Positions 2,497 to 56,450 of a stretch of 64,000 nt of DNA are shown in pieces. This DNA comes from Gammaproteobacteria bacterium (lineage in GTDB: Bacteria > Pseudomonadota > Gammaproteobacteria > QZLD01). The notes under the pieces were generated by a model, which had not been told where the DNA came from, made no database searches, and saw only the letters and a list, made by a program, of their open reading frames with translations. Location: assembly GCA_033852135.1 (NCBI GenBank), contig JAWSVB010000022.1, positions 101,936 through 165,935 on the forward strand. Reading direction: 5' to 3'. The number at the start of each line of letters is the position of its first letter. Within the stretch, counting starts at the first letter, position 1. Made by a program: the position numbers and the translations under genes.

Positions 2497-2511
2497 TGGG
2501 GCAGGCGCAGT

Positions 2512-2883
2512 ATGAATAATTCAATTTTAATTGTTGATGATGAACTTTTTATTCGGCAAAGTCTGAATGATTTTTTTAAAGATAGTCAATGGATTACATT
2601 CATAGCAAGCAGTGGAGAGGAAGCTTTAGAAATTCTTGAGCAGGAGAGCCCTTCTGCAGCAATTGTAGATATAAGAATGATGGGAATGAATGGTGATGAA
2701 TTTATTCGGCAAGCAAGAGATGTAAAACCGGAAATGTGTTTTGTGATATGTACAGGGTCACCTGAATATAAACCATCGTATGACCTTCTTCAGCTATCAC
2801 AAGTGTCAGAACAAATATATAGAAAACCGATTGATGATATGGAAAATCTGGAAAACCATATATCAAGTTTAATTAGTAATTAA
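2512..2883 (+). CDS. Single-domain response regulator (CheY-like receiver only)
   Basis: 'ILIVDDE' acidic pair, phospho-acceptor Asp in 'AIVDIRMMGMNG', 'CTGS' and 'YRKP' Lys. No output domain. Starts 16 nt after the HK1 stop. Confidence 0.85.
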   Translation: MNNSILIVDDELFIRQSLNDFFKDSQWITFIASSGEEALEILEQESPSAAIVDIRMMGMNGDEFIRQARDVKPEMCFVICTGSPEYKPSYDLLQLSQVSEQIYRKPIDDMENLENHISSLISN

Positions 2884-2910
2884 CATGAACAGTTATTAAG
2901 CCTTTTTATA

Positions 2911-2980
2911 GGTTAGATAGGTTAGATAGGTTAGATAGGTTGGATGGGTTAGATAGGTTGGATGGGTTAGATAGGTTAGA
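2911..2980. repeat. Tandem 9-bp repeat, about 7.8 copies (GGTTAGATA / GGTTGGATG variants)
   Basis: Direct reading gives GGTTAGATA x3, GGTTGGATG, GGTTAGATA, GGTTGGATG, GGTTAGATA, then a partial GGTTAGA. Lies between the receiver stop (2883) and the HK2 start (3003). Confidence 0.95.
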
Positions 2981-3002
2981 AGTTAAGTAGGTAAATTAAA
3001 AC

Positions 3003-5375: not shown

Positions 5376-5408
5376 CATAAATAATGAGCATATATCTTTA
5401 AATATTCT

Positions 5409-5426
5409 ACAGTTATAACTGTAGGC
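5409..5426. promoter_or_regulatory. Perfect 18-bp palindrome CTACAGTTATAACTGTAG (candidate operator, or weak terminator without a T-run)
   Basis: Seen directly, 34 nt after the HK2 stop and about 135 nt upstream of the MEDS-like gene. Confidence 0.5.
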
Positions 5427-5563
5427 CTATTTGAGTTTTTAGTGTTGATGAATGGACAGGCACTAATGAAAGATTAACCGTTTAACTGTTGGTTAGTCGC
5501 TAGAGATACTGTGTATTTAATAGCAGCTGGTATGTGAACAGTTGCTATGTGGGAGGAGAGATT

Positions 5564-6184
5564 ATGAATGATAATCATCAAAAAATCTCACTGGGTTTTG
5601 TGAAAGAAAAAGTAGATGTAGGAACTCATCTATGTCTTGTATTTACCGATAAAAAGGAAAGAGTTGATTCTTTGTTAAAATTTATTTTAGCAGGGATGGC
5701 AGATAATGAGCGCACAGCATGTTTTTCTGAAGTTATAACTGAAGCAGAGATAACAGAGTTTTTTAAACTAAATAATATCTCCTACGATGAACGTAAATCC
5801 AAGCAAGCAATAACCTTTGGTCGTACTAGTGATGTCTATTTTCAAGACAATACTTTTGACCCAGAAAGAATGCTTGGAATCTTAGAACAATTCTATACAG
5901 ATGCGATAGAAATGGGGTTTAGCGCCTCAAGAGTAATTGGAGAGATGTCTCCGAAGATACAAGATGTCACTGGCGGTGAGAGATTGCTGGAATACGAATC
6001 AAGAGTTACTAAATTACTTGAAAAGAGCCCGATAACAGCTGTTTGCCAATATGATGCAAATCAATTTGATGGAGCGACGATTATGGATGTATTGAAAGTG
6101 CACCCAAAGATGATTGTTAATGGCGTAGTTGTTGAAAATCCATTTTTTATAAAACCCGATGAATTTCTTGAAAATATCAAGTAA
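5564..6184 (+). CDS. Small cytoplasmic sensory-domain protein, possibly MEDS family (DcmR-like)
   Basis: ATG at 5564 follows a strong RBS GGGAGGAGAG (the listed ORF starts at 5534 with no RBS). About 206 aa, no TM. The motifs 'HLCLVF' and 'AVCQYD' recall MEDS domains as I remember them. The protein sits directly upstream of the soluble kinase HK3. The family assignment is from memory and not verified. Confidence 0.4.
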   Translation: MNDNHQKISLGFVKEKVDVGTHLCLVFTDKKERVDSLLKFILAGMADNERTACFSEVITEAEITEFFKLNNISYDERKSKQAITFGRTSDVYFQDNTFDPERMLGILEQFYTDAIEMGFSASRVIGEMSPKIQDVTGGERLLEYESRVTKLLEKSPITAVCQYDANQFDGATIMDVLKVHPKMIVNGVVVENPFFIKPDEFLENIK

Positions 6185-6200
6185 AAGGCATAGTTAGCAT

Positions 6201-7898
6201 ATGAGCTTTGAGGATGGTCTTTCAGCTAAAGTAATTGGGCAGATTGCAATGATGCAAGGTGTTGTAGCACAGCTGCCAGATGAGGTTTCTGTACTTGGTT
6301 TTGTTGCTAAAGGGTTATCCGATATTCCAGGTGTGAAAAAGGTAGATTATGTCTTATTCAATGATGAAGAAACATCAGTATTAGAATATGAAACAGAAGA
6401 ACTAAGGCACATATTTCCAATTGAATATAAGCAATCAAAATACTCATCATTAATATTTCACCTATCTGATAGATCTAAATTTGACCTGTATGCCCCTTAT
6501 ATCGGTAATTTTACCAATGTACTAGCAGTACTGTTTGAGGAGAGGCGTCAGCGCAAATCTAATGAGGCATTGTTAGAAAATCTTGAAGAGTTGGTGGATG
6601 AAAGAACAAAAGAGTTAAAACAAGAGATTGCTGAACGTAAAAATGCAGAGGCTGAGTTAGAGAGAACAAAAGACTACATATCAAATGTAATCGACTCTAT
6701 GCCATCTGCTCTAATATCAGTAAATGAAAACCTTGAAGTAACGCAATGGAATTTAAAAGCGGAGGAGATTACAGGGGTGCCAGCCCCAGATGCTTTTGGG
6801 ATGAAGCTGGATGATGTTTTTCCGCGCATGGGAAAAGAGCTGGAATTAATATCAAACAGTATACAAAACAAAGAGATAAAATTTGAGCAGAAAACAGCAT
6901 ACGAAGCAGAATCAGGTGTAGGTTATGAAGATATAACAATTTACCCTTTAGTAGCGATTGGGATTCAAGGTGCTGTTTTACGTATAGATGATGTCACCAG
7001 TAAAGTGCGTATGGAAGAGATGCTGGTACAAAGTGAGAAGATGCTCTCAATCGGAGGGCTTGCCGCAGGAATGGCGCATGAAATTAACAATCCATTAGCT
7101 GGGATGATGCAAACAGCAAATGTAATGCAAAATCGTTTAGTCGATAATGTTGATATTCCAGCAAATAGAAGAGCGGCAGAGGAGATTGGTGTGGATCTTG
7201 AAGCGATTGTTGGCTTTATGTCGGCTAGAGGAATTCCGCGCATGATACACGCGATAAAAGAGTCTGGTGTAAGGGTAGCTTCAATAGTCAATAATATGCT
7301 GCATTTTGCACAACAATCAGATGATGAAATTAATACAAGTAAAATTGCAGATATAATCGAGAACACTATTGGTTTAGTTTCTACAGATTACAATCTAAAG
7401 AAACAGTACGATTTTAAAAAAATTAATATTATTCGGGAGTTTCAAGAAGATCTACCTGAAATTGAGTGCCACTCATCCAAAATTCAACAGGCCATGTTGA
7501 ATCTATTTAGCAATAGTGCACATGCACTGCAACAAGCTAAAATTGAAAATCCAAAAATAATAATAAGATTAGCGATAGATGAGAAGCAAGATGATAAAGA
7601 TGCAATGGTACGGGTTGAGATTGAAGATAATGGCCCAGGTATTTCCAGTAAGTTAATAGGTAGATTATTCGAACCATTTTATACAACAAAACCTACAGGT
7701 GAGGGAAAAGGGTTAGGTTTAAGTGTTGCATATTTCATAATTACTGAAACTCATAAAGGAAAGATGTGGGTAGAGTCTAATGAGGGGGTAGGCACTAAAT
7801 TCATAATATGTTTGCCAGTAAAGCAAAATGGTAGCGATATAAGTATCGATAGAAATGTAGATAAAAATTCTATAAATTCAATGGATAACAAAGGTTAA
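6201..7898 (+). CDS. Soluble (no TM) histidine kinase: N-terminal domain, coiled coil, PAS, HisKA, HATPase; paralog of HK1/2/4
   Basis: Coiled coil 'LEELVDERTKELKQEIAERKNAEAELERTKDY'. H-box 'SEKMLSIGGLAAGMAHEINNPLAGMMQT'. 'DNGPGIS...GEGKGLGLS'. Confidence 0.88.
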   Translation: MSFEDGLSAKVIGQIAMMQGVVAQLPDEVSVLGFVAKGLSDIPGVKKVDYVLFNDEETSVLEYETEELRHIFPIEYKQSKYSSLIFHLSDRSKFDLYAPYIGNFTNVLAVLFEERRQRKSNEALLENLEELVDERTKELKQEIAERKNAEAELERTKDYISNVIDSMPSALISVNENLEVTQWNLKAEEITGVPAPDAFGMKLDDVFPRMGKELELISNSIQNKEIKFEQKTAYEAESGVGYEDITIYPLVAIGIQGAVLRIDDVTSKVRMEEMLVQSEKMLSIGGLAAGMAHEINNPLAGMMQTANVMQNRLVDNVDIPANRRAAEEIGVDLEAIVGFMSARGIPRMIHAIKESGVRVASIVNNMLHFAQQSDDEINTSKIADIIENTIGLVSTDYNLKKQYDFKKINIIREFQEDLPEIECHSSKIQQAMLNLFSNSAHALQQAKIENPKIIIRLAIDEKQDDKDAMVRVEIEDNGPGISSKLIGRLFEPFYTTKPTGEGKGLGLSVAYFIITETHKGKMWVESNEGVGTKFIICLPVKQNGSDISIDRNVDKNSINSMDNKG

Positions 7899-7903
7899 GT
7901 TAT

Positions 7904-9058
7904 ATGATTAAACTATTTAAAATAATAGCTGTTTTATCATTGTTAGCATTAATCGTAATACTGAATATGCAATCTGCATCTACTGTAAAGATTGGATTAG
8001 TTGCAGATTTAAGTAGTAGAAAAGCCAACCTTGGTGATTCTGTAAGAAATGGGCTGATTCTCGCGATAAATGAGATAAATCAACAAGGCGGTATAAATGG
8101 TCACAAGGTTGAATTATTAGTTCGAGATGGTAAATCTAACGAAGCTATTACCCAGCAACAAGCAACTAATTTAGTTGATAACTGTGTAAATCTAATAGTT
8201 GGACCTGTGCACAGTGCAATGGCAAATTCAGTAATAGAAGCGACTAAAGAAGCAGGTATATTGGTTATAAGTCCAACAGTTTCAACTGATAACCTCTCCG
8301 AAATTGATGATAACTTTTTCCGCATAAATACCAAATCATCCATTCAAGGTAATGACCTTGCAAGAGCATCAAAACTTAGGGGCGATAAGAAAGTATTATT
8401 GGTAGTGGACCAAGATAATAGTGAGTATACCGGGTCAGTAGCTCATGGTTTTAGAGAGAGAGCAAAACTACTGGATTTAGAAGTCATCGGTGAAATAGCT
8501 TTTACTAAGGAGCACGATACTACTAAATTGGTAGATAAAATCATCCAATACAAGGCTGATGCATTAGTCTTTATAACTAATGGCAAAGATGCAGCAAAAA
8601 TTATCCAGCTATATAACAAAGTTAGCAAACTACCAAACTTATATGGTGATATGTGGGCGAAGTGGAGCAATGTTAAAGAGTTTGGAGGTAAAGCTGTAAA
8701 TGGGATGGTTTTAGTTGGCATTAATAAGAATAAACAGAGCCAAGATAAAGAGGTGCAATTTGCCTCATCCTATAAACAGCTTTTTGGTTCAGAGTATACG
8801 ATACCAGCGGTTTATGCGTATGAGGCTGTACAATTATATGCTTTAGGTGCACAAAATGCCTCTAGCTTGGATAGCGATAAAATTAAACAATATATTTTGA
8901 AAATAGAGCAAATAGATGGAGTGGTGGATAACTATAAACTTGATATGTATGGTGATGCAATTCGAGAGTTTTCATATTTCCAAATTAAAGATAATAGATA
9001 TGAAAAGATAAATTTACCCAAAGAGTTACCTATAAAAATAGATAGTGTTAAAGAGTAG
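7904..9058 (+). CDS. Periplasmic binding protein, LivK/Leu-Ile-Val-binding family (Peripla_BP_6-like), signal peptide
   Basis: Signal peptide 'MIKLFKIIAVLSLLALIVILN'. 'VKIGLVADLSSRK...GINGHKVELLVRDGKSN' is typical of type I PBPs. No ABC permease or ATPase genes nearby. Confidence 0.75.
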   Translation: MIKLFKIIAVLSLLALIVILNMQSASTVKIGLVADLSSRKANLGDSVRNGLILAINEINQQGGINGHKVELLVRDGKSNEAITQQQATNLVDNCVNLIVGPVHSAMANSVIEATKEAGILVISPTVSTDNLSEIDDNFFRINTKSSIQGNDLARASKLRGDKKVLLVVDQDNSEYTGSVAHGFRERAKLLDLEVIGEIAFTKEHDTTKLVDKIIQYKADALVFITNGKDAAKIIQLYNKVSKLPNLYGDMWAKWSNVKEFGGKAVNGMVLVGINKNKQSQDKEVQFASSYKQLFGSEYTIPAVYAYEAVQLYALGAQNASSLDSDKIKQYILKIEQIDGVVDNYKLDMYGDAIREFSYFQIKDNRYEKINLPKELPIKIDSVKE

Positions 9059-10222
9059 ATGGTTAAAAATATGAATAATTATAAAACAGGAACAAAAAGA
9101 TTAATCAGAGCTGGAGCAATAATTGTTTTGCTAGCATTGGTTACTTGGCTATTACTATCCCTACTAATTTTAAAAGAGCCGGTAAAAATAGGTTTTTTAG
9201 CAGATTTAAGTACCAGAAAATCGCAGCTAGGTGTTGTGGCAAGAAACGGTGTGATTATGGCCGTAGATGAATTAAATGACAGAGGTGGAATAAACGGTAG
9301 AAAAGTTGAGCTTATTATTAGAGATATAAAATCAAGTAAAGATGAGGCAAAGCTTCAAACGTTAAAATTAATTGAAGATGGGGTAGATGTGATAATCGGA
9401 GGGTTTGTTAGCTCAATGGCCGCTCCTGTTCTTGAAGCTACAAAGAATAGTAATATCTTGCTAATAAGTCCTACAGTTGCAGCTGATAGTTTGTCAGGAA
9501 TTGATGATAATTTTATTCGGATTACCCCACAAGCATCAAAACATGGTAGTTCGCTTGCTGAGGCAGCTGGGTATATGGGAATTAAAAAAGTTACTTTGAT
9601 TCGCGATATCAAAAATGAAGAGTACTCAGGGGCTGTAGTTGATGGGTTTAAGAAAAAATGTGAAGAACAATCTATTCAAGTTATTGGTGATCTAGAGTTT
9701 GAAACCAAGCAAGACTTCCCTCAACTTGTTGAGCAATTGTCTAAGCTGCAGTCAGATGCTTTGGTATTTATCACCAGTGGAATCGATGCCGGTGCGATTA
9801 TTCAGCAATATGCTAGAAATAATAATGTTCCACATCTATTTGGCAGCATGTGGACAAAAGTTACAAAAGTAAATGAGTATGGTGGAAAAGCAGTAAATGG
9901 AATGTTTCTGGTAGATGTTTTTGCGAATAAAAATCCAGAAGTTAAAGAAGTAGAGTTTAATAAATCTTTCAAAGAGCGTTTTGGAATGGGATCAAATATG
10001 CCATCAAGGTATACATATGAATCTGTAAAGCTATTTGCTCAAGCTGCTGAGAAAGCAAATAGTGTAAAAACTGAAAAAGTAAAAACTGAAATTATTAATA
10101 TGAACCCTGTTGAGGGGATAACAGATAACTATCAGATTGATAAATATGGTGATGTTATTCGTGAACTATCCCTTTATCAGATTAAAAATCACCAGTACGA
10201 GTTGACTAATAAAACGAACTAA
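9059..10222 (+). CDS. Second LivK-type periplasmic binding protein (tandem paralog), N-terminal membrane anchor or signal
   Basis: 'VKIGFLADLSTRKSQLGVVARNGVIMAVDELNDRGGINGRKVELIIRDIKSS' is parallel to the upstream PBP. Hydrophobic N-terminus 'AIIVLLALVTWLLLSLLIL'. Confidence 0.75.
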   Translation: MVKNMNNYKTGTKRLIRAGAIIVLLALVTWLLLSLLILKEPVKIGFLADLSTRKSQLGVVARNGVIMAVDELNDRGGINGRKVELIIRDIKSSKDEAKLQTLKLIEDGVDVIIGGFVSSMAAPVLEATKNSNILLISPTVAADSLSGIDDNFIRITPQASKHGSSLAEAAGYMGIKKVTLIRDIKNEEYSGAVVDGFKKKCEEQSIQVIGDLEFETKQDFPQLVEQLSKLQSDALVFITSGIDAGAIIQQYARNNNVPHLFGSMWTKVTKVNEYGGKAVNGMFLVDVFANKNPEVKEVEFNKSFKERFGMGSNMPSRYTYESVKLFAQAAEKANSVKTEKVKTEIINMNPVEGITDNYQIDKYGDVIRELSLYQIKNHQYELTNKTN

Positions 10223-10342
10223 TACAAATAGCTAATTAATAAAAAGTGCAATAAATAGGATATATGTAAATGCAGAAAAAAATCAGTAAAGAAATGAACC
10301 AACAATACAAAAAGGTTGCGTTTAAATAGCAGGTTTTATGTA

Positions 10343-12601
10343 ATGGTTAATTTCTTTCATAACATAAGCATTCAAAGGTTTTTCAAGATTTATCTCTTGA
10401 TTGCTGTGTTATTACCGTTATTGGTTCTTGGCTTGGTAGGATTGACAATATCATCAAGCTTATTAAGGCATGAGATATTAAACGCAGATCATAGGCAGGT
10501 ACACCTTGCTGAATATGCTATCGAGCAGCACCTCCAAAGACCACTTGAGGATCTTCAGGTTATATCAAGCCTAATTCATAATATTTCAAAATCACAGCCA
10601 TCAAGAATCCAGAGAATTATCGAAAAAACTCAAGATGCGCATAGATATTTTGCAGCTATTCAAGTTGTTGATATTGATGGTCGAGTAATTGCTATATCCC
10701 CATTAAATAAAGATTTGATGGGTATTGATGTATCAGGACACAGATACTTCAATAAAATTAAAAGTTTAAATACTCCGTATTGGGGGGCATCATTTATATC
10801 GGAGCAGTTAGAGTTACCACTCGCATCACTAAGTATAAAAACAGATTATGGCTTTATTATCACAGGTTTTCTCAGATTAGATGATATTAGTGAAATCGGT
10901 AAAGGTAGGAGACAAGAAGAAACTAGTAATAATGATATTGATTCACGATTGTTGTTTATCACAGACCAGAATGGGGTATTTATTGCACACCCAGACAAAC
11001 AAAAAGTTATGATTCGTGAATATGACCAACAATATGCAAAAAGTATTAAGCAGTGGAATAGTGATATTTTAGTTAGTGAGGCTGAATATAATGAGCGTGA
11101 ATTCTTAGTAAATACGGTTATTATGCCAGAGACAAAATGGAAAATATCACTATATACTCCACTTGAAAATATCACTTCTCCAATTATAAAAACGGCAGTT
11201 ATATTACTGCTTTTAACTCTAGCAGTTACCGTATTAGCAATTATTGGCGGAGCAAAACTCAGTAGTAAAATATCTGGCTCTTTCAGTGAGTTGCTTAAGT
11301 CAGTAGATGCTATCGGCAAAGGGAAGTATGAAGTACCAATATCTCAAAGTAATTATAGAGAGTTTAACCAGCTTGCTGATTCATTTGAACAGATGGCACA
11401 AGAGGTAAAAGCAAGGGAGAAAGACCTCAAGGAAGCAGAGAGCTATATCTCCAATATTATTAATTCCATGCCATCAATATTGGTAAGTGTGAACAGAGAT
11501 CTAATAATTACGCAGTGGAACATGACTGCAAAAGATAAAACAGGGGTTGAGGCAGAAGATGCAAAAGGGAAAAATCTAGTGGAGCTTTTGCCTAATTTGC
11601 AGTCAGAAATCAGTAAAATAGAGAGCAGCATAGAAAGTCGGCAAGTTAAATATAGCAGGAAAAAGCCACTTTATTCTGAGAGCAATGTAAGCTACGAGGA
11701 TATAACAATTTTTCCACTAATAGCTAACGGAGTACAAGGAGCTGTTATTCGTGTTGATGATGTTACGGATAAAGTTCGTCTTGAAGAGATGCTGGTACAA
11801 AATGAGAAAATGTTATCCATTGGTGGGTTGGCAGCTGGTATGGCGCATGAAATCAATAATCCGCTAGCAGGGATGATGCAAACAGCAGATGTTATTCAGA
11901 ATCGTTTAGTAAATAAAATTGATTTGCCAGCAAATAAAAAAGCAGCAGAAGAAGCAGGTATTACTATTGAAGGGGTTTCTAAATTTATACATGCCAGAGA
12001 TATTCCTCGTATGATTGAAACAATAAAAGAGTCTGGTAAACGTGCGGCTACTATCGTTAATAATATGCTCACATTTGCACGTAAGGCAGACCACAGTAAA
12101 TCAAAGGTAAATGTAGAGCGTTTATTAGAAGACACATTAGATCTAGCAATAACCGATTACAATTTAGAAAAAGAGCATGATTTTAAACAGATAAAAATCA
12201 TAAAAGAGTTTGAATCTAGCTTGCCATTATTGCTATGTGAAGAAACTAAAATTCAGCAGGTGATTTTAAATTTACTGCTCAACAGTGCCCAAGCAATATT
12301 TGGCAGCAGTATAAAAGCACCTGTAATTCATATCCGTACAAGTCTGTCTAAAGATAGCAAAATTATTAATATCGAGATTGAAGATAATGGCCCGGGGATG
12401 GATAACGAAACAAGTAAAAGAATATTTGAACCGTTTTTTACAACAAAAGATGTTGGTCAAGGGACAGGTTTAGGTTTAAGTGTTTCATATTTTATTGTTA
12501 CAGAGAATCATGGTGGTGAGATGAGTGTTACATCAAAGACAGGGGAAGGCACTAAGTTTTTAATATCCCTGCCAGTAGAAGGAAACAAAAATGAATACTA
12601 G
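10343..12601 (+). CDS. Sensor histidine kinase with ~250-aa Cache-like periplasmic domain, TM, HAMP, PAS, HisKA, HATPase (paralog HK4)
   Basis: ATG at 10343 (the listed ORF uses an in-frame TTG at 10316). TM1 'IYLLIAVLLPLLVLGLVGLTI', TM2 'AVILLLLTLAVTVLAIIGG'. H-box 'NEKMLSIGGLAAGMAHEINNPLAGMMQT'. 'DNGPGM...GQGTGLGLS'. Confidence 0.85.
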   Translation: MVNFFHNISIQRFFKIYLLIAVLLPLLVLGLVGLTISSSLLRHEILNADHRQVHLAEYAIEQHLQRPLEDLQVISSLIHNISKSQPSRIQRIIEKTQDAHRYFAAIQVVDIDGRVIAISPLNKDLMGIDVSGHRYFNKIKSLNTPYWGASFISEQLELPLASLSIKTDYGFIITGFLRLDDISEIGKGRRQEETSNNDIDSRLLFITDQNGVFIAHPDKQKVMIREYDQQYAKSIKQWNSDILVSEAEYNEREFLVNTVIMPETKWKISLYTPLENITSPIIKTAVILLLLTLAVTVLAIIGGAKLSSKISGSFSELLKSVDAIGKGKYEVPISQSNYREFNQLADSFEQMAQEVKAREKDLKEAESYISNIINSMPSILVSVNRDLIITQWNMTAKDKTGVEAEDAKGKNLVELLPNLQSEISKIESSIESRQVKYSRKKPLYSESNVSYEDITIFPLIANGVQGAVIRVDDVTDKVRLEEMLVQNEKMLSIGGLAAGMAHEINNPLAGMMQTADVIQNRLVNKIDLPANKKAAEEAGITIEGVSKFIHARDIPRMIETIKESGKRAATIVNNMLTFARKADHSKSKVNVERLLEDTLDLAITDYNLEKEHDFKQIKIIKEFESSLPLLLCEETKIQQVILNLLLNSAQAIFGSSIKAPVIHIRTSLSKDSKIINIEIEDNGPGMDNETSKRIFEPFFTTKDVGQGTGLGLSVSYFIVTENHGGEMSVTSKTGEGTKFLISLPVEGNKNEY

Positions 12602-12968
12602 TAATAAAAGCGTTTTGATTTTAGATGATGAACCGTTTGTAAGGGATAGTCTTGTAGATTATTTTGAAGATTGCCTTTGGACCGTATTTTGTTCTGGGCA
12701 GGAGGATGAGGCGCTAGATATTATAAAAAACTATAAAATAGATTGTGCCATAGTGGATATTCGAATGGCAGGTATTGGTGGGGACCAATTTATTCGTGAA
12801 GCGAATAAACTGCCCAATAAAATTGGATTTGTAGTTTGTACCGGTTCTCCTGAGTATGAAATTCCAGCTGATTTAGCCGCATTAGAAAATGTTTCAAATA
12901 CTATTTTTAGTAAACCTGTGACAGAGCTAAATAAATTAGAGCAAGAATTACTGAAGTTAGCAGGATAA
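12591..12968 (+). CDS. Single-domain response regulator (receiver only), translationally coupled to HK4
   Basis: ATG overlaps the HK4 stop (ATGAATACTAG). 'VLILDDEP', 'AIVDIRMAGIGG', 'CTGS', 'FSKP'. Paralog of the receiver at 2512. Confidence 0.85.
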   Translation: MNTSNKSVLILDDEPFVRDSLVDYFEDCLWTVFCSGQEDEALDIIKNYKIDCAIVDIRMAGIGGDQFIREANKLPNKIGFVVCTGSPEYEIPADLAALENVSNTIFSKPVTELNKLEQELLKLAG

Positions 12969-13044
12969 ATGTCAGTTTTTCTAATAAACTTAAATATATA
13001 TGATTATTACTATTCATAAAAAGTATATCGAGTAACGGTGGGTC

Positions 13045-14352
13045 ATGAGTGATACTCAAATTACAGTGCTAGCAATTGATGATGATGAATACATCAGGCA
13101 AAGTTATATCGATTGTTTGGAAGACTATGAATACAAAGTATTTATAGCTGAAAATGGCAGAGTTGGTTTAGAGCTTTTTGAACAGCACATTGATGAAATT
13201 GATATCGTAATTGTTGACCTAAGAATGCCAGAGGTTGATGGCTTTCAAGTAGTTGCACATGTGAAAAAAAGTAAGCCAGAGCTACCAATAATTGTAGTTT
13301 CCGGTAATGGAGTAATAAGTGATGCAGTTGAGGCTCTTCATCAAGGAGCGTGGGATTACTTGCTAAAACCGATAGAAGATTTTTCTGTATTGATTCACTC
13401 TGTAAATAGCTGCTTGGATAAGGCGCGTCTTATTAATGAGAATGCAGAGTATCAACTCCATCTGGAAAGTATGGTTGCAGATAGAACTAATGAATTATTT
13501 GAAGCAAATATTGAGCTGAAAAGGCATAAAAGTCACCTGCAAGAGCTGGTTGAAGAGAGAACATCAAAATTAAATGAATCATTAGAAAATCTAAATAATA
13601 CAAAAGATTATTTAATCCAATCTGAAAAAATGGCAGCCCTAGGTGGTTTGGTTGCTGGTGTTGCGCATGAGATTAATACTCCAGTTGGGATTGGTGTAAC
13701 GGCTGCCTCACACCTCGAAGGTGAGACCAGAAAGTTTACTAAAGCCTATGAAAACGGCGAACTAACCAGAAAGGCGTTAGATAGCTATGTGAAAATAGTA
13801 AATGAAAGTTGTGGAATGATTCTGTCCAATATGAATCGTGCTGCAGACTTAATCCATAGCTTCAAGCAAGTTGCAGTTGACCAATCTAGCCAAGAAAATC
13901 GTGAGTTTAATGTTAAAAAGTATTTGCATGAGATCTTTGCAAGCCTGAATCCAAAGTTTAAGAATACCAGTTTAACTATCAATGTAGAGTGCGCAGATGA
14001 CCTGACCATTAACTCCTACCCTGGGACTATGTCTCAGATTATCACCAACCTTGCCTTAAACTCCCTTATCCATGGCTTTGAAGATAAAGAAAATGGAACT
14101 ATAGATTTAAAAGTTGTGAAAGAAAATGGAAATATTAAGATAAATTATTCAGATACCGGCCACGGAATATCAGAAGAAAATTTAACTAAAATATTCGACC
14201 CATTTTTCACAACTAAGAGGGGTTATGGGGGGAGTGGACTTGGCTTACATATAGTTTTCAATTTGGTCACCCAAACCCTTGGTGGAAGTATTGAATGCAA
14301 TTCGAAAGAGGGTGAAGGGGCTGAGTTCATTATTGAATTTCCATACTCTTAG
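13045..14352 (+). CDS. Hybrid response regulator-histidine kinase (N-terminal receiver, coiled coil, HisKA of a different subfamily, HATPase)
   Basis: Receiver 'VLAIDDDEYIRQ...IVIVDLRMPEVDG...VVSGNG...LLKP'. H-box 'SEKMAALGGLVAGVAHEINTPVGIG'. 'DTGHGI...GGSGLGLHIV'. Confidence 0.85.
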   Translation: MSDTQITVLAIDDDEYIRQSYIDCLEDYEYKVFIAENGRVGLELFEQHIDEIDIVIVDLRMPEVDGFQVVAHVKKSKPELPIIVVSGNGVISDAVEALHQGAWDYLLKPIEDFSVLIHSVNSCLDKARLINENAEYQLHLESMVADRTNELFEANIELKRHKSHLQELVEERTSKLNESLENLNNTKDYLIQSEKMAALGGLVAGVAHEINTPVGIGVTAASHLEGETRKFTKAYENGELTRKALDSYVKIVNESCGMILSNMNRAADLIHSFKQVAVDQSSQENREFNVKKYLHEIFASLNPKFKNTSLTINVECADDLTINSYPGTMSQIITNLALNSLIHGFEDKENGTIDLKVVKENGNIKINYSDTGHGISEENLTKIFDPFFTTKRGYGGSGLGLHIVFNLVTQTLGGSIECNSKEGEGAEFIIEFPYS

Positions 14353-24000: not shown

Positions 24001-24047
24001 AAGAAGTAATATTTAGTTGTATTTATTAATTTTGGTTTTATTAAATA

Positions 24048-24082
24048 TTAAGGGCGCAATATGTAATATGTTGCGCCCTTAA
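24048..24082. terminator. Bidirectional intrinsic terminator between converging RND and HD-GYP genes
   Basis: AGGGCGCAA-loop-TTGCGCCCT hairpin flanked by A/T runs. Confidence 0.75.
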
Positions 24083-24111
24083 TTATCAGAATGGATTTTA
24101 CCTATTACAAA

Positions 24112-25278
24112 CTAAGCTTTTGCAACCTGTTCACGCTTATTTTTGTTCAGCATGACGGCATTAAAATGCTCTACCCATTTATCAGAAAACTGAGTGCCTG
24201 AACATGCATTTATCTCAGATATACCTCTGATATATGTACGCTTGTGATCTCGGTCAGATCTATTATTTGTCATGGAGTAAAAAGCATCAACAATAGCCAT
24301 TATCTTGGCTCCATCAGAGATGCTAGCGCTTTTTAGTCCCTCTGGATAACCTTTCCCATCTGGTCTTTCATGGTGTTGTTGCACTATGGTGCCAGTATCA
24401 TTCCAATTTATTAACCTTTTAGTGATAGATGCACCCTGCGATGTATGGCGGTTGATTAGATTAACTTCATCTTTGCTTAGTTTGCCCTTTTTAAACATTA
24501 CATGGTTGGGTATAAATGCCATGCCGATATCATGCAAGCAAACAGCAGCTGTTAGTTTACTTGGGTCTAGTGGATTTCCGGCAGATTCATTTATGCTAAG
24601 TGCAAGCTCGATTAACTGCTGCGTTCTACCTTCCCAAGCGGGATTCTTTTTATCAATTTTGGCTGCAAGCATCCGGAAAAATTTTAAATCATCCCGCATC
24701 CCTTGGGTTAACGAAACATCATTTGCTTCAATAGATTCTTGGTTTTTATTCCTCTTAGGTTTGATATCTTTTTCAGGTTCTGGTGCAGTAGTTGTTTCAG
24801 CTGGTACAGGGTTAAATCTACCAGTGATAAGGGTGATAAGTTTTTCAGCTTCATCAGTATATTCAGCATCTTTTGCTTTTGAAATCTTAGTTAATAGAGT
24901 TTGAATCTCTTCACGTTGAAATTCAGCAATAGACTTGTGATTAATTACTGCATAGATAACCTCTTTTAAACGATCAAGAGAGATTAGTACTACATCGCAT
25001 AAAGTATCATTGAATTGGATTTTTTTGGTTTTGATCGAGTAAATTACATCTTCAATTGCTTGGCTTAAAGATACAATTGGGTCAAGTTCACATACAGTAG
25101 CATTGGATTTGACTGAATGAATAGCTCGGAAACAGTCATCAATAAGAAACTGGTCATCAGGTTGACTAATTAGAGTTGATAAGTTTGTTTCGATAGTTGC
25201 ATAACTTTCAGAAAAGTTATCAAGCAGGTCCTGAATTAATTCTTCTTCAACATTGTGGATATAGATTTCTTCAGACAT
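24112..25278 (-). CDS. HPt-like domain fused to HD-GYP c-di-GMP phosphodiesterase
   Basis: C-terminus: 'HDIGMAFIP...HHERPDGKGYPEGL' (HD and GYP motifs). N-terminus: 'CFRAIHSVKSNATVCELDPIVSLSQAIEDV' resembles the CheA-P1/HPt consensus 'FRAAHSIKGGAGTFG'. Pro/Thr/Glu-rich linker between them. Confidence 0.7.
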   Translation of the reverse strand: MSEEIYIHNVEEELIQDLLDNFSESYATIETNLSTLISQPDDQFLIDDCFRAIHSVKSNATVCELDPIVSLSQAIEDVIYSIKTKKIQFNDTLCDVVLISLDRLKEVIYAVINHKSIAEFQREEIQTLLTKISKAKDAEYTDEAEKLITLITGRFNPVPAETTTAPEPEKDIKPKRNKNQESIEANDVSLTQGMRDDLKFFRMLAAKIDKKNPAWEGRTQQLIELALSINESAGNPLDPSKLTAAVCLHDIGMAFIPNHVMFKKGKLSKDEVNLINRHTSQGASITKRLINWNDTGTIVQQHHERPDGKGYPEGLKSASISDGAKIMAIVDAFYSMTNNRSDRDHKRTYIRGISEINACSGTQFSDKWVEHFNAVMLNKNKREQVAKA

Positions 25279-25427: not shown

Positions 25428-26294
25428 CTATGGAGATATCTTCTCTTTAGATATTATCCCTTCAAGCCACTGTATTGCTTCATTAACAGTTTGAACCCTG
25501 GTACGAGGGTCAGGTCTGAGCATTTGGGCAATTAGTTGTGATAGTTGAGACCCTACAAGCGGGGATATGAACTGGTCCGGGAGAGAGCAAACATTTTTTG
25601 CATTGAGGATTTGTTCAGCAGTTGAAGAGCCGGTATTCCACTTTTTTCCTGTAACAAGCTCATAAAAAATAACTCCAACTTGAAATATATCGCTTTGTTC
25701 CAGCCATTGTTCTCCTTGGGCTTGCTCAGGACTCAGATACTCAGTAGAACATTGGGCTGTAGTATGCATTACTTTATGTTTTTTAAAGAAAGCAGAAGCA
25801 AAATCCACAAGGTAAACATGTCCTTTTTTACCGAGAATAATATTTTCTGGAGTGATATTGCCATGAATTACAGGCTCTTTGCATAGGTGGAGGTATTTGA
25901 GTGCTCCGAGTATTTGCGATACAACGCCAACTGCAAAGCGAGGGTTCTTATAAATCTGTGCTGGCTTTTCAGCGCACAGCGCTTTTAGCGACATACCTTT
26001 AACGTAATTATATGCAATATAATGGATGTCATTGACTTTGCCGTGCTCAGTATATTTAGGAAACTGTTTGCCTTTGAGAAGGTTTAAGATTTTTCCTTCA
26101 AGTTGGAATTGCTTAATTGCTTTTTCATTTGTAGAAAGTTTTGAATCTAAAAATTTAATATAAAGTGGTGCCTTATCCTTTTTTTCAGCCACGCCAATAG
26201 CGGCTCTATAAAAAGAATCTTTTTTAAGTGGTCTGAGAAAATAGTTTCCTGTACGAAAAGGAAACGGAGTTGCACTACCTTGTTGTGTGTTCAT
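25428..26294 (-). CDS. Protein-kinase-like protein (Ser/Thr kinase fold) with substituted catalytic loop; probable pseudokinase
   Basis: Kinase landmarks are present: 'YIKFLD' (VAIK Lys), 'EGKIL' (alpha-C Glu), 'YLSPE' (APE). The HRD catalytic loop reads 'HGNITPEN' (no Asp) and DFG reads 'DFA'. Confidence 0.6.
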   Translation of the reverse strand: MNTQQGSATPFPFRTGNYFLRPLKKDSFYRAAIGVAEKKDKAPLYIKFLDSKLSTNEKAIKQFQLEGKILNLLKGKQFPKYTEHGKVNDIHYIAYNYVKGMSLKALCAEKPAQIYKNPRFAVGVVSQILGALKYLHLCKEPVIHGNITPENIILGKKGHVYLVDFASAFFKKHKVMHTTAQCSTEYLSPEQAQGEQWLEQSDIFQVGVIFYELVTGKKWNTGSSTAEQILNAKNVCSLPDQFISPLVGSQLSQLIAQMLRPDPRTRVQTVNEAIQWLEGIISKEKISP

Positions 26295-27707: not shown

Positions 27708-28703
27708 ATGGTTGTAAGATCAAGGCGTAGGAAGCAAAAGAAAGATGTAGAGCAGGGAAGTAATCCACTTCAGGAACTTATCGATCTTAAAGATGAGTAC
27801 TCATCGATAAAGGATGATTTTCTTGAGGAGGAGAGTGGCTCATATTCTGAAAAAATTCTTGATATATCTAAACGTTTGCAGCAGATGTGCGATGCGGATA
27901 CCGATTTGCTTTTGGCCTATTTTCAGTTAAACCGTGAAGATGACTATGATGTGATTCAACCTTTATATTCTGGTGTCATTTGTGAAGTTATTAGCGCCAA
28001 AAAAGTTAAAGATCCAGATGAAAGGTTAATGATTATAGCTGCTGCATTAACTCATGATATTGGAATGCACACCCTAAAAGATATAATTCAAAATCGAGCA
28101 GTACCACTCACTCCAGATCAGCTGGCCGACCTTAAGCTACATCCAATTAGATCTATAAAATATCTACGCAAGTCAGGTGTTAAAAGTGATATATGGATAA
28201 AGTCTGTACAGCAACATCACGAAAGGCTAGATGGTTCAGGTTATCCACATGGCATAAGCAATGACGATATATCGCTTGGAGCTAAAATCATCGCAATATC
28301 AGATGTCTTTATAGCAATGACTAAACCTCATGCTAATAGAGAAGGGGCGATTGCAAAACATGCTCTTACCGAGTTATTTACCAGTCGTGGGGATAAAGTT
28401 GATAATGAATTAACTCAGCTGTTTATTCGTGAGATGGGGTTTTTTCCACCAGGATCGATAGTAAAACTGATTAATGGTGATATTGCTCTGGTAACCCATA
28501 GAGGGCAAACAGCAACTCAACCAATTGTTCAAAGTATCATTGGACCTCGTGGGGCTCCATTTGAAAAGCCAATTCCGCGTAAAACATCGCATGAGGCTTT
28601 TGCTATAAAAGATCTGGAAGCTGGTGATGAATATCGCAAAATGGCCTTTAAATTGGCTGTTCAGCTTTGGAAGAGTGACAAGATTCATTTTTTAAGTAGT
28701 TAG
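27708..28703 (+). CDS. HD-GYP domain c-di-GMP phosphodiesterase with unassigned ~100-aa N-terminal domain
   Basis: 'HDIGMHTL...HHERLDGSGYPHG...ISDVFIAMT'. Confidence 0.82.
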   Translation: MVVRSRRRKQKKDVEQGSNPLQELIDLKDEYSSIKDDFLEEESGSYSEKILDISKRLQQMCDADTDLLLAYFQLNREDDYDVIQPLYSGVICEVISAKKVKDPDERLMIIAAALTHDIGMHTLKDIIQNRAVPLTPDQLADLKLHPIRSIKYLRKSGVKSDIWIKSVQQHHERLDGSGYPHGISNDDISLGAKIIAISDVFIAMTKPHANREGAIAKHALTELFTSRGDKVDNELTQLFIREMGFFPPGSIVKLINGDIALVTHRGQTATQPIVQSIIGPRGAPFEKPIPRKTSHEAFAIKDLEAGDEYRKMAFKLAVQLWKSDKIHFLSS

Positions 28704-31240: not shown

Positions 31241-31459
31241 ATCGGTCCAGGTTGAAGGCAGTAATAGGCGCCAATCATCTCATTTTTAGGAATTAAATCC
31301 AATTAAGCCCTATAAATAGTTCTTAATAACTAAAAAAACAGGACTCAGGTAACATTACAGCAAAAGATTTACAGTAATTAATGGTAACTAAACTATTATT
31401 TTAGTAATTAGTATAAATGTAATTTATCTATTGATGGTTGGTAGTTGTCGGAATGTTTA

Positions 31460-33292
31460 ATGAAAGTAGATAGAGAGTTATTAAAACTTAATATTCTCAT
31501 AATAGATGATCAGCAAATAAATCATGATTGTATCAATGAAATATTGATTGCTTCAGGGTTTGAGCAGATTATCAATGTAACAGATTCCAGAAAGGCGATA
31601 GGGGTCTATCGCACCTTATCACCTGATTTAATCATTATTGATTTGAAAATGCCATTTCAAGATGGAACCTCTCTTTATCAAGATATGATTGATGTATCTG
31701 GTGGACATAAGCCAAATGTATTGGCTCTTGCACATAGAGATGATAGTGACTTAGTAAAAGAGGCTCTTGAAGCTGGTATATCCGATATTATTTACAAACC
31801 TCTAGTTGAAATAGAAATTATTCCTAGAGTAATAAATCAATTAAAAATTTGTAGCTTATATAAAGAAGTAATAGATTTTAAAAAAATTAAACATCAATAT
31901 GGCAATAAAAACATAGATAATCTTCAGCTTGAAACAGAGAAACGCCAGGCTGTTGAAGATAAGCTATTGCATATGGCTATGCATGATCCACGTACCAATT
32001 TTCCCAATAGAATGATGCTTCAACATAGGGTTGGAGAGCTGGTAGAGTTGGAAAAAATAAAACAATTTTATGTAATAGTGGTTTATCTAAAGCATTATGA
32101 TGATATAAACCATGCTCTTGGTTACCATAATGGCGATAAAATCCTTATGCAGGTTGCAGTAAGATTAGGCGATTTAGCTAAGCTCGTTGATGGTGCTATC
32201 CAAATTGACTCACATGGTGGGAGTGAAGATTACCTTTCAGTTCTTGAAGGTGTAAATTTTGCTTTTTTAGTTGATGCTTCAAAAATCAGCGTTGATATTA
32301 ATGATATAGCTTTGTCAGTCTTATCTGATATGCAAAGGCCATTCGATTTTCATGGCATGTCTTTGGATATTGGAGCATATATTGGGATTTCTTCTTACCC
32401 TGAACACGGGAAAAACTCCAATATCCTGATGCAACATGCGCATATAGCTATGGAGATGGCACATAATAATGTTGAGCACTATGCCATTTATTCACCTGGT
32501 GAAGATCCATACAGTGCAAGGCGTTTGATGTTAATGGTTGAGTTACGTGCAGCCATTGAAAATAATAATCTAAAACTTTTTTATCAACCACAAATGTCAC
32601 TTCTAAATGAAGAAGTTGTAGGTGTGGAAGCCTTAATTCGCTGGATTCATCCTAAACTGGGGTTCATACCGCCTGATGAGTTTATCCCAATTGCGGAGCA
32701 AACAGGGATCATAAAGCAATTAACTCGCTGGGTTATAAGGGAAGCAATTAAAAAATGCTATTACTTTTTTGCAAAGGATGAGCCTTTGCGAATGAGTATT
32801 AATATCTCACCTAAAAATATTCAAGAGCCAGATTTAGCAGATTTTATAATTGAGTCACTAGCAGATTATAGTTTGCCTAATGATCTACTAATGCTCGAAT
32901 TAACCGAGAATATTAATTTTGCTAGTAATGGGATTGCTAAAAATAATTTAGATTCGCTGCACTCTAAAAATATTAAATTTTCAGTAGATGATTTTGGTAC
33001 GGGGTATTCTTCACTTTCATACCTAAAGCAACTTCCATTGGCTGAGCTGAAAATTGATAGATCTTTTGTTATGGAGTTAATGGATAATCCTGATGACATT
33101 ATGATTGTACATACAACTATTGAGATGGGGCATAACCTGGGGCTAGAGATTGTAGCAGAGGGTGTGGAAGATGAGCGCTCATGGAATATGCTGCGTGATT
33201 TGGGATGCGATGTAGTGCAAGGGTACTATCTAGGTAGACCAATGCCAGAGGATGATCTGGATAAGTGGTTGGCTAATGGTGGAGTCTTGTAG
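31460..33292 (+). CDS. Response regulator receiver, degenerate GGDEF, and EAL c-di-GMP phosphodiesterase
   Basis: ATG at 31460 (the listed ORF starts at a TTG at 31445). Receiver 'ILIIDDQQ...IIIDLKMPFQDG'. GGDEF-like region 'HDPRTNFPNRMML...' with the signature replaced by 'HGGSEDY'. EAL motifs are intact: 'EALIRW', 'DDFGTGYSSLSYL', 'KIDRSFV'. Confidence 0.82.
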   Translation: MKVDRELLKLNILIIDDQQINHDCINEILIASGFEQIINVTDSRKAIGVYRTLSPDLIIIDLKMPFQDGTSLYQDMIDVSGGHKPNVLALAHRDDSDLVKEALEAGISDIIYKPLVEIEIIPRVINQLKICSLYKEVIDFKKIKHQYGNKNIDNLQLETEKRQAVEDKLLHMAMHDPRTNFPNRMMLQHRVGELVELEKIKQFYVIVVYLKHYDDINHALGYHNGDKILMQVAVRLGDLAKLVDGAIQIDSHGGSEDYLSVLEGVNFAFLVDASKISVDINDIALSVLSDMQRPFDFHGMSLDIGAYIGISSYPEHGKNSNILMQHAHIAMEMAHNNVEHYAIYSPGEDPYSARRLMLMVELRAAIENNNLKLFYQPQMSLLNEEVVGVEALIRWIHPKLGFIPPDEFIPIAEQTGIIKQLTRWVIREAIKKCYYFFAKDEPLRMSINISPKNIQEPDLADFIIESLADYSLPNDLLMLELTENINFASNGIAKNNLDSLHSKNIKFSVDDFGTGYSSLSYLKQLPLAELKIDRSFVMELMDNPDDIMIVHTTIEMGHNLGLEIVAEGVEDERSWNMLRDLGCDVVQGYYLGRPMPEDDLDKWLANGGVL

Positions 33293-56191: not shown

Positions 56192-56450
56192 CCAGCCATT
56201 TTTTCTATCCCAATAATGTTTTCTATGGCTTGCCTCTTTGGTGGTTAGGCAGTGTTTTGCCTATAGTATTGGTATCTTAATGCTTCTTTGTTTAGGTTGT
56301 GCGTTAGAAATTAATGCTTTATTAGCCTGCAAAAATTTTTAATCTATTTGAAAAGAATAATGGCTGTTCCTAAAAATTTGGAATGCAGCGTTTTGTCCGC
56401 TATTTTTTCGGAGTATAGTATTAAAATTATTGAAATAAGGTAGTAGATAA

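Follow-up and report, generated by a model that had tools for sequence, protein, structure and literature searches.

A family of HD-GYP proteins with a predicted CheA-P1-type phosphotransfer domain in place of a receiver

Of the classes of c-di-GMP phosphodiesterase, HD-GYP enzymes are the less well understood, and where phosphorylation is known to control them it acts through receiver domains. The commonest HD-GYP architecture is that of the RpfG family, in which a receiver, phosphorylated on Asp and well understood as a switch, precedes the HD-GYP output domain. The protein considered here appears to share this layout of a phosphorylation-accepting input N-terminal to an HD-GYP output, but its input is a helical bundle with a predicted phospho-His.

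The closest described relatives of that bundle come from chemotaxis. In CheA, the phospho-site of the P1 domain is a network of His, Lys and Glu residues (H48, K51 and E70 in E. coli, acting with H67), and P1 binds both the kinase domain and CheY weakly and transiently. P1 can also stand apart from a kinase domain: R. sphaeroides CheA3 consists of P1 and P5 only, and its P1 is phosphorylated in trans by CheA4. The present protein is similar in that its P1-type domain is separate from any kinase domain and would need phosphorylation in trans, and the CheA3 structure 3kyi is one of its structural matches. It differs in carrying an HD-GYP domain and in lacking a P5 or CheW-like domain and che neighbours, where CheA3 has P5 and a che operon. 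A connection between c-di-GMP degradation and the chemotaxis kinase is also known from P. aeruginosa Pch (DipA), which occurs in complex with CheA and depends on the CheA P1 histidine (PMC3861689). Pch, however, is a multidomain EAL-type protein associated non-covalently, possibly through an adaptor, whereas the present protein has its P1-type domain linked covalently to HD-GYP in one chain. We found no paper that uses the term "HPt-HD-GYP" and no published description of such a family; the words HPt, CheA and phosphotransfer are absent from the text of the Galperin and Chou HD-GYP survey.

The gene, its product and its family

The gene lies in a window of 64,000 nucleotides, the whole stretch of DNA that was analysed (Table 1). 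A first-pass annotation had placed its open reading frame exactly; it runs on the minus strand. The gene has 36.9% GC and the whole window 36.6%; the genome is AT-rich and gammaproteobacterium-like, and its relatives are MAGs of unclassified Gammaproteobacteria. An identical protein (100%, P0001) is present in public assemblies.

Table 1. Coordinates of the gene, its coding segments and adjacent features, in window positions
Feature	Position	Strand	Basis
Complete HPt-linker-HD-GYP gene	24112..25278	minus	ORF list and translation; ATG start; 388 aa plus stop
CheA-P1-type histidine phosphotransfer domain, aa 12-152 (predicted)	24823..25245	minus	AF2 secondary structure; profile against PDB; Foldseek
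H54 codon; predicted phospho-acceptor, equivalent to E. coli CheA H48	25117..25119	minus	HMM alignments to CheA P1
Codon of K57 (aligns to E. coli CheA K51)	25108-25110	minus	HMM alignments to CheA P1
Codon of E76 (aligns to E. coli CheA E70)	25051-25053	minus	HMM alignments to CheA P1
Linker, Pro/Thr/Glu/Lys-rich, disordered, ~25 residues (aa 155-179)	24742..24816	minus	pLDDT <50 in full-length AF2 model
HD-GYP domain, aa ~181-377	24148..24738	minus	Pfam HD_5; PDB sequence matches; Foldseek
Codon of R218, Arg in place of first metal-binding His (PmGH H189)	24625..24627	minus	Alignment with 62 other HD-GYPs
H249-D250-I-G-M253: HD kept, Lys of HDxGK (PmGH K225) replaced by Met	24520..24534	minus	Alignment
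H302-H303-E-R-P-D-G-K-G-Y311-P312 = HHExxDGxGYP, intact	24343..24375	minus	Family alignment
GC-rich 13-bp hairpin separating the gene from a convergent gene of AcrB type that ends at 24000	24047..24083	.	RNA folding energy of -19.4 kcal/mol; z of -6.1 relative to shuffles
Upstream same-strand neighbour, Pkinase fold, degenerate catalytic loop (HGN for HRD)	25428..26294	minus	Pfam Pkinase, 95.7 bits

The product of 388 residues reads as an N-terminal Hpt, a disordered linker and a C-terminal HD-GYP domain. In a Pfam scan, Hpt (PF01627) matched at 34.9 bits, above its gathering cut-off of 24.6 (E 1.9e-8), over aa 13-105 and positions 1-82 of the 84 in the profile, followed by HD_5 (89.5 bits, aa 204-347) and HD (44.5 bits). 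Response_reg had no match in the protein up to E 10, and the N-terminal fold is all-helical; HATPase_c, H-kinase_dim and CheW likewise gave no Pfam match. The NCBIfam CheA models cover aa 14-146 only, scoring 15-39 bits where the cut-offs are 793-950, and since P3, P4 and P5 are missing the protein is not a CheA. Pfam and AF2 together thus bear out the fusion of an Hpt domain through a linker to HD-GYP, with no receiver, that had been proposed from the sequence, and the strings quoted at the time are both present, aa 50-65 being FRAIHSVKSNATVCEL and aa 302-315 HHERPDGKGYPEGL. The linker, rightly described as rich in Pro, Thr and Glu (NPVPAETTTAPEPEKDIKPKRNKNQ, aa 156-180), is the sole low-confidence stretch of the AF2 model (pLDDT <50 at 155-179), and it differs in length and sequence from one family member to another. 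The full-length model has a pTM of 0.82 with the larger domain making up only 54% of the chain, which suggests that the two domains may be held in a fixed arrangement.

The architecture had been called uncommon. Though rare beside REC-HD-GYP, it defines a family, found mostly in environmental proteobacteria, that numbers at least 139 clusters at 50% identity. A second profile search of a word-indexed protein database added almost no further members, but its scores separated the family (316 bits or more) from HD-GYP-only proteins (195 bits or less). When genome contigs were searched by profile with the family alignment, two of 80 loci (L001 and L002) belonged to the family and the rest were generic HD-GYP patterns; the genome of the window was not among the loci. 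Cultured carriers include Ectopseudomonas toyotomiensis, in which the phospho-site His is kept, and Chitinibacter fontanus, in which it is lost; in variant members (P0125) two tandem Hpt domains precede HD-GYP. V. cholerae VC2340, an inactive HD-GYP protein whose N-terminus has no domain assignment, was considered as a possible member.

The P1-type domain and its phospho-site

The N-terminal domain is, by sequence and by model, a five-helix Hpt of the CheA-P1 type. It had been taken for an Hpt of about 110 residues; it is an Hpt, but one that spans about 140, with predicted helices at aa 12-38, 43-62, 66-83, 91-112 and 122-152 (the last made up of 122-134 and 137-152). Neither a missing Hpt HMM hit nor a model other than a helical bundle, both named in the annotation as refuting it, was obtained. 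H54 sits in the middle of helix B (43-62) within a four-helix core, to which a fifth helix is added. CheA P1 domains are defined by five helices (PMC3180615), and this fifth helix is predicted with high confidence. When aa 1-149 were modelled with AF2 (pLDDT 94), the result fitted the P1 domain of Salmonella CheA (1i5n) with a TM score of 0.88 and an rmsd of 1.8 Å, much better than chance would give. By Foldseek, CheA P1 domains match at TM 0.8-0.9 (1i5n 0.88, 3kyi 0.81), whereas Ypd1-type and hybrid-kinase HPts have E values above 0.1. A profile built from 28 N-terminal domains and run against PDB sequences gave the same picture. Its only strong matches among natural solved proteins were CheA P1 domains, at E 1e-14 to 1e-23 (T. 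maritima CheA P1, 2ld6: E 4.5e-23, profile positions 13-145); the remaining strong matches were designed proteins such as BRIC1/2, and the top non-CheA Hpt came at E 0.03.

The details of the phospho-site are also those of CheA. As in the CheA P1 structures (1i5n; T. maritima 2ld6/1tqg), the His lies mid-helix B in an FRxxHxxK motif, with a helix-C Glu at His+22, and the His/Lys/Glu network is kept as H54, K57 and E76, the last being the Glu that in CheA pairs with His. Two positions depart from CheA in the clade of the query, where the Gly at His+4 is Ser and H67 is Gln (Q73); the majority of the family has Gly and His. A label of generic phosphorelay Hpt was considered and rejected, CheA P1 being the best match by both sequence and structure and the His/Glu helix-C signature being specific to CheA. 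Unlike CheA, the protein has no P2-P5 after P1, and so cannot autophosphorylate on H54, the predicted phospho-acceptor; HD-GYP is fused there instead.

We tentatively read the protein as a receiver-less c-di-GMP phosphodiesterase, or a c-di-GMP-binding effector, coupled to phosphotransfer, and give this slightly less than an even chance. The product would be a soluble two-domain signalling protein with P1 as input and HD-GYP as output. Acting in trans, P1 would exchange phosphoryl groups either with a kinase core of the CheA type or with a hybrid kinase's receiver, and its phosphorylation or partner-bound state would alter its packing on the HD-GYP domain and so change HD-GYP activity or location. 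The coupling within the molecule, like the phosphorylation of H54 and the choice of phosphodonor, is put forward as an inference.

The distribution of H54 over the family bears directly on this proposal. The histidine is present in 108 of the 139 representatives, and these have R51 in 89%, K57 in 93% and E76 in 94% of cases; where it is absent (31/139, about 22%), the three companions fall to 10-52%. Such co-conservation shows the phospho-site residues behaving as one functional unit. Another possibility, raised for a receiver in the first-pass annotation, is that the P1-like domain serves mainly to dock a partner independently of phosphorylation, be it the kinase domain of CheA, a receiver like CheY or some other protein. 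It would thereby place or scaffold an HD-GYP of constitutive activity, in a chemosensory array or at the flagellated pole for instance. Those 31 representatives keep the helical domain after losing H54 together with R51, K57 and E76, and in Pseudomonadales a His-less ortholog and a His-bearing member share the same aspS-adjacent locus. One member is divergent from a fliL-flhA flagellar operon, and R. sphaeroides CheA3 P1 contacts CheY6 directly (PDB 3kyi). Docking alone would not need a phospho-site, however, and the full phospho-site signature is under strong selection in 78% of the family, the query included. The contacts of P1 in CheA, weak and transient as they are, also speak against a docking role, and we regard it as unlikely.

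[quoted passage not shown]

The C-terminal domain matches the HD-GYP proteins PA4781 (4r8z) and PmGH (4mcw) by sequence, and by Foldseek it is closest to 9rbz (TM 0.83), with 4r8z at TM 0.74. It had been called intact, which is right for the HHExxDGxGYP motif; the HD dyad and this motif are invariant in 51 members, and among the 139 representatives D307 is conserved in at least 87% and the others in at least 96%. Two other active-site positions are changed. Seven metal ligands are shared by HD-GYP proteins, in PmGH H189, H221, D222, H250, H276, H277 and D305 (PMC4159591). Six of them are kept here as H249, D250, H278, H302, H303 and D331, and the seventh is R218, with no His anywhere in aa 205-248. 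Arg occupies this position in 44 of 44 family members, against His in 59 of 62 other HD-GYPs, and in 130 of the 139 representatives. At the position of PmGH K225 the family has Met (44/44; 126 of 139 representatives), where the other HD-GYPs have Lys (58/62). In PmGH both H189A and K225A abolish activity (PMC4159591), so catalysis by a domain with R218 and M253 is not assured.

A precedent of sorts is found in the HD-GYP domain of X. campestris RpfG, which also lacks the H189 ligand. RpfG is expected to keep the Lys of HDxGK, following the general HD-GYP pattern; in the query an Arg is paired with Met at K225, invariant throughout the aligned family. The residue in RpfG is Phe, the E185 carboxylate is missing, and the site is predicted to be binuclear (PMC4159591).

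Most positions that contact c-di-GMP appear to be retained along with the GYP loop. K263-K264-G265 aligns with the contact motif K-P-G, with Lys for Pro, and R340-S-D-R343 fits the second motif, RxxK/R, as RxxR when aligned with PA4781; aligned with PmGH, the match is R340...K346, across an insertion of 3 residues. The domain may still hydrolyse c-di-GMP. A degenerate receptor label was rejected on the ground that the HD and HHE motifs are conserved at close to 100%, unlike those of known receptor-type HD-GYPs.

Could the signal run the other way? The HD-GYP domain might be a non-catalytic or slow sensor of c-di-GMP (or of metal or redox state) and P1 the transmitter, with the ligand exposing or hiding H54 and thereby gating a branch of a phosphorelay. 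The replacement of both residues whose Ala mutants are inactive in PmGH fits this arrangement, as does X. campestris RpfG, which is reported to have little phosphodiesterase activity and to act through protein contacts. The closest structure, 9rbz, is that of the c-di-GMP-bound receptor-type HD-GYP of DvhD, and the same Arg/Met-type signature (W..RT, HDxxM/L) is joined to phosphorelay domains in the uncharacterised hybrid kinases P0126-P0130. In these (HD-GYP twice, cNMP-binding, sometimes PAS, HisKA, HATPase, REC, Hpt) the domain stands in tandem at the N-terminus, the usual position of a sensor; unlike the query, they have a duplicated N-terminal HD-GYP, a complete kinase and a C-terminal Hpt. 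Known receptor-type HD-GYPs (DvhD, HnoD, ECA3548) have nonetheless lost HD and HHE, which here are conserved in nearly every member: DvhD reads SQ in place of HD and M-N in place of the two HHE histidines, with only the Glu kept, and the query keeps them all. The roughly 22% of members that lack the entire phospho-site strictly keep the HD-GYP site, which would be pointless if HD-GYP merely controlled H54 and which argues that HD-GYP is the output. Conservation of H249, D250, H278, H302, E304, G310, Y311 and P312 is 98% or more with or without H54, and mean conservation of HD-GYP columns is equal in the two groups (0.54 and 0.56). We consider the reversed direction quite improbable. The same comparison bears on the proposed coupling, and on the direct phosphorelay control of hydrolysis that the annotation had put forward: in a search for a site that senses phospho-His, no HD-GYP column co-varied with the presence of H54 (largest difference 0.26), and all strong co-variation with H54 falls inside P1.

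It is also conceivable that the phospho-His of P1, or a bound phospho-receiver, is hydrolysed by the remodelled metal centre of the same protein, draining a chemotaxis or phosphorelay pathway. Such a sink would resemble the CheA3 phosphatase of R. sphaeroides in function. HD domains are general metal-dependent phosphohydrolases, the family-wide change of His to Arg and Lys to Met hits the catalytic centre, and the AF2 model suggests that the two domains pack together. Conservation of the GYP loop and contact positions (K263/G265, Y311, R340/R343) points instead to a cyclic dinucleotide ligand, His-less members retain the HD-GYP site, and no precedent is known; we consider this highly improbable.

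Genomic neighbourhood and the phosphodonor

No che or two-component partner is conserved beside the gene in 10 genomic contexts. The same-strand neighbour, separated by 149 bp, has a Pkinase fold and carries VIHGNITPEN / DFA; it adjoins the gene in close relatives only, with the same substitutions in GCA_033852075.1. On the other side, the hairpin is a probable bidirectional terminator, which a simple terminator scan did not call because it has no clean T-run. A promoter scan found 9 candidates, against 10.2 expected from shuffles.

The first-pass annotation had suggested that the phosphate perhaps comes from nearby hybrid kinases. The domain would then be the missing Hpt of a multistep phosphorelay, fed by the receiver of a hybrid kinase such as the one at 42975-46508. 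This kinase terminates in its receiver and lacks an Hpt, and a scan of 49 window ORFs turned up no other Hpt. Elsewhere in the family, P0052 lies downstream of a kinase-receiver protein of 1004 aa, at a distance of 230 bp, and the P1-like Caulobacter protein HmrX has been proposed to act with the hybrid kinase HmrA (PMC11481889). The kinase, however, is the only hybrid kinase in the window and lies 18 kb from the gene, with unrelated genes (recC, a UvrD-type helicase) between; P0052 has Glu in place of the phospho-acceptor His, and kinase adjacency occurs in one of the 10 contexts. The His/Glu helix-C signature, moreover, is that of CheA and unlike that of hybrid-kinase Hpts. Supply from a nearby hybrid kinase is therefore not supported, and the missing-Hpt role itself appears doubtful.

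Since P1 is of the CheA type, hybrid kinases are no likelier to be the phosphodonor than a kinase core of that type. In its strictest form, the CheA kinase core would phosphorylate P1 directly, and c-di-GMP turnover by the Arg-site HD-GYP would be a receiver-independent output of the chemoreceptor array. We hold this specific version to be improbable. Several observations count against the broader reading of a phosphotransfer-coupled phosphodiesterase or effector: no HD-GYP column follows H54, 22% of members are His-less, R218 and M253 replace residues needed for activity in PmGH, and the gene has no conserved che or two-component neighbour.

The replacement of a receiver by a CheA-type Hpt would mean either a new His-Asp wiring to c-di-GMP, possibly from the chemotaxis kinase, or that an enzyme can have an Hpt-like bundle as its regulatory or docking module. 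We know of no Hpt domain that controls a fused enzyme via its own phospho-His, and if the CheA-driven reading is true this would be the first case in which a phospho-Hpt, and not a phospho-Asp receiver, does so. The family-wide Arg/Met change in the metal site is in addition a natural experiment on which HD-GYP ligands are needed for catalysis, a point on which the RpfG data conflict. Since cultured carriers exist, the family is accessible to experiment.

The fused protein and its N-terminal domain

The gene under study (see table) is a single ORF that opens with ATG and fills its interval on the minus strand, as judged from the ORF list and its translation, encoding 388 aa. Both strings quoted in the first-pass annotation, FRAIHSVKSNATVCEL and HHERPDGKGYPEGL, were located in the protein, at aa 50-65 and 302-315 respectively, and the proposed fusion of an Hpt to an HD-GYP domain is borne out by Pfam, with Hpt (PF01627) at 34.9 bits, above its gathering cut-off of 24.6 as that annotation's suggested HMM check asked, HD_5 at 89.5 bits and HD at 44.5 bits. 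A sequence search of solved structures returned the HD-GYP enzymes PA4781 and PmGH together with CheA P1 domains. The full-length AlphaFold model (pTM 0.82, pLDDT 87.6) has low confidence only in a Pro/Thr/Glu/Lys-rich linker at aa 155-179. The GC content of the gene (36.9%) matches that of the window (36.6%), and a strong hairpin separates it from a convergent AcrB-type gene. Taken together, these results show that the Hpt-linker-HD-GYP fusion is real, far beyond chance.

The N-terminal domain is of the CheA-P1 type, P1 being the Hpt domain of the chemotaxis kinase CheA. A profile built from 28 family N-termini and searched against solved proteins matched T. maritima CheA P1 with an E-value of 4.5e-23 over all five helices, as well as the E. 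coli and Salmonella P1 domains and that of R. sphaeroides CheA3 (3kyi; E 3e-14). The other check suggested earlier, a structural model, gave the same picture: aa 1-149, modelled separately with a pLDDT of 94, superpose on Salmonella P1 with a TM-score of 0.88 and an rmsd of 1.8 A. In the profile alignments H54, the predicted phospho-acceptor, corresponds to E. coli CheA H48, K57 to K51, E76 to E70 and Q73 to H67; among the matches listed, His predominates at position 73 and Gly at position 58, both as in CheA.

A generic phosphorelay Hpt was ruled out, the top non-CheA Hpt reaching an E-value of only 0.03 with the profile, and Ypd1-type, fungal and hybrid-kinase HPts staying above 0.1 in the structure search with the aa 1-149 model. 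Nor is the protein a CheA, because Pfam and NCBIfam scans found no kinase, dimerisation or CheW-like domain in it, and the NCBIfam CheA models match the N-terminal region alone, far under their cut-offs.

A remodelled HD-GYP domain

The C-terminal sequence identifies the domain as an HD-GYP, though not a fully canonical one. Residues H249-D250, H278, H302-H303-E304, D307, G308 and G310-Y311-P312 are identical in all of 51 relatives, both near and far, and D331 is kept in 50 of them. The first-pass annotation called the domain intact, a description that fails at the metal site. When 44 members of the family were aligned to 62 other HD-GYPs, the position of the first metal-binding His (R218 here) proved to be Arg in all 44 versus His in 59 of the 62, and the HDxGK Lys position (M253) Met in 44/44 versus Lys in 58/62; this protein has no His within aa 205-248. 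The two positions correspond to H189 and K225 of PmGH; H189 is a metal ligand there, at the 'H' site, and Ala in place of either residue abolishes activity (PMC4159591).

At the position of E185, an optional third-metal carboxylate, the protein has Ala and most family members Tyr or Phe, which puts the family among the HD-GYPs predicted to be binuclear. Second-shell R192 and D308 are also replaced, as Q221 and Y334, within the clade of this protein. The substrate-contact motifs are mostly retained, with K263-K264-G265 for KPG, Y311, and an RxxK counterpart at R340-x-x-R343 or R340...K346, where the alignment is ambiguous. X. campestris RpfG, whose activity is disputed, has likewise lost the H189 position, with Phe there in contrast to Arg in the P1-fused family. 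The second HD-GYP of the window reads HDIGM and has Tyr at the expected first metal His (YSGVI), which indicates that a His-less, Met-type metal site is not exclusive to that family.

Extent of the family and genomic setting

When 1.84 billion cluster representatives were searched exhaustively with HMMER, 150 matches were listed, every one with E <=5e-92, and 139 of them are proteins of 290-460 aa aligned end to end. In a calibration run no family member scored below 316 bits and no HD-GYP-only protein above 195; the family at 50% identity is therefore larger than 150. Named sources are Gammaproteobacteria and Pseudomonadales MAGs, Thiohalobacteraceae, Ectopseudomonas toyotomiensis and Chitinibacter fontanus, and automatic annotations vary from 'HD domain-containing protein' and 'HPt domain-containing protein' to even 'CheA'. 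The term 'HPt-HD-GYP' was not found in the papers searched, and the main text of a dedicated survey of HD-GYP architectures mentions neither HPt, CheA nor phosphotransfer; the family is sizeable, and no published description was found in the literature searched.

One variant (P0125) has two tandem Hpt domains ahead of the HD-GYP. The same search returned giant proteins built of a repeated P1/Hpt-like unit, P0123 (4858 aa, 35 matched stretches), P0263 (1950 aa, 15) and P0151 (1533 aa, 9). It also returned hybrid kinases of 1200-2000 aa (P0126-P0130) in which two tandem Arg/Met-type HD-GYPs and a cNMP-binding domain precede HisKA-HATPase-REC(-Hpt), placing HD-GYP in the sensor position; we know of no description of this architecture.

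Features of the window
Feature	Position	Strand	Remarks
Dense sensor island	67-14352	+	Cache-PAS kinase, single receiver, HAMP-PAS kinase, MEDS-domain protein, PAS kinase, two Peripla_BP_6 periplasmic binding proteins, dCache kinase, single receiver, REC-HATPase protein
Hairpin	24047-24083		
P1-HD-GYP gene	24112-25278	-	
Pkinase-fold gene	25428-26294	-	Directly upstream of the P1-HD-GYP gene
Second HD-GYP	27708-28703	+	331 aa; 2.4 kb from the P1-HD-GYP gene; neighbour conserved in relatives
REC-GGDEF-EAL	31445-33292	+	
Hybrid kinase	42975-46508		Only one in the window without its own Hpt
GAF-GGDEF	46586-48253	-	
REC-GerE response regulator and uvrC	55550-58262	+	uvrC immediately after the regulator

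Genes for c-di-GMP turnover abound in the window, with four of them (two HD-GYPs, REC-GGDEF-EAL and GAF-GGDEF) within 25 kb. The REC-GerE regulator and uvrC are arranged as is typical for gacA/uvrY-uvrC in Gammaproteobacteria.

The P1-HD-GYP gene looks monocistronic. The product of the Pkinase-fold gene is probably a pseudokinase because its catalytic loop is degenerate (VIHGNITPEN versus HRDLKPEN, with HGN for HRD), and DFG has become DFA. A 74%-identical relative has a matching upstream neighbour (locus L082, 4965-5894) with HGN and NFA. Other family members adjoin unrelated genes: a divergent flagellar fliL-flhA operon, aspS-ruvCAB, lysS, htpG, pst/ppk/phoU, thiamine genes, a transglycosylase with an ECF sigma factor and, in one case only, a hybrid kinase, where Glu replaces the His.

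The phospho-site, its partners and the output

H54 is present in 108 of the 139 representatives among the matches listed. R51, K57 and E76 are 89-94% conserved in these 108, falling to 10%, 35% and 52% in the 31 without H54, a pattern that marks the phospho-site as a functional unit under selection in most members, this protein included. Docking by P1 independent of phosphorylation is a rival reading. In the same 139 representatives H249, H302, R218 and M253 are 89-100% conserved with and without H54 alike, and mean HD-GYP column conservation is equal (0.54 versus 0.56). Since metal-site conservation is not split by H54, HD-GYP function outlasts loss of the phospho-site and the HD-GYP is probably the output, not a mere sensor for P1 as in the rival, reversed arrangement with P1 as transmitter.

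Strong co-variation with H54 is confined to P1, around the phospho-site (F50, R51, K57 and positions 58, 73, 76 and 83), and the column scan of those representatives found no HD-GYP column co-varying strongly with it. This argues for a phospho-site facing partners outside the protein and against one that docks in a dedicated phospho-His pocket of the HD-GYP. A phosphate sink is a further rival.

The protein is best described, as a prediction, as a phosphotransfer-coupled c-di-GMP phosphodiesterase, or else an effector that binds c-di-GMP, in either case without a receiver domain. P1 would exchange phosphoryl groups with a partner in trans, and its state may then affect HD-GYP output through intramolecular packing, which the pTM of the two-domain chain suggests. 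The first-pass annotation stands as an observation, its interpretation in part. Of the 'nearby hybrid kinases' it offered as donors, the Hpt-less one lies 18 kb away, and adjacency to a kinase occurred in one of 10 genomic contexts. Because the His/Glu signature is CheA-specific, we slightly favour a CheA-type kinase core as donor; the 64-kb window itself yielded no che genes. R. sphaeroides CheA3/CheA4 offer a precedent for a P1 domain phosphorylated in trans, and the Pch-CheA link of P. aeruginosa is a functional parallel. By analogy with the P1-like HmrX of Caulobacter, for which that route was proposed, a hybrid-kinase receiver would be nearly as likely a donor.

The combination of these two known domains is new, and the family adds its own remodelling of the HD-GYP metal site. 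Two Pseudomonadales genomes (L085 and L092) have a member at the same site, divergent from aspS-ruvCAB-tolQR; P0039 keeps the phospho-acceptor His, whereas P0033 has Arg there, making them a natural pair for probing the role of the His.
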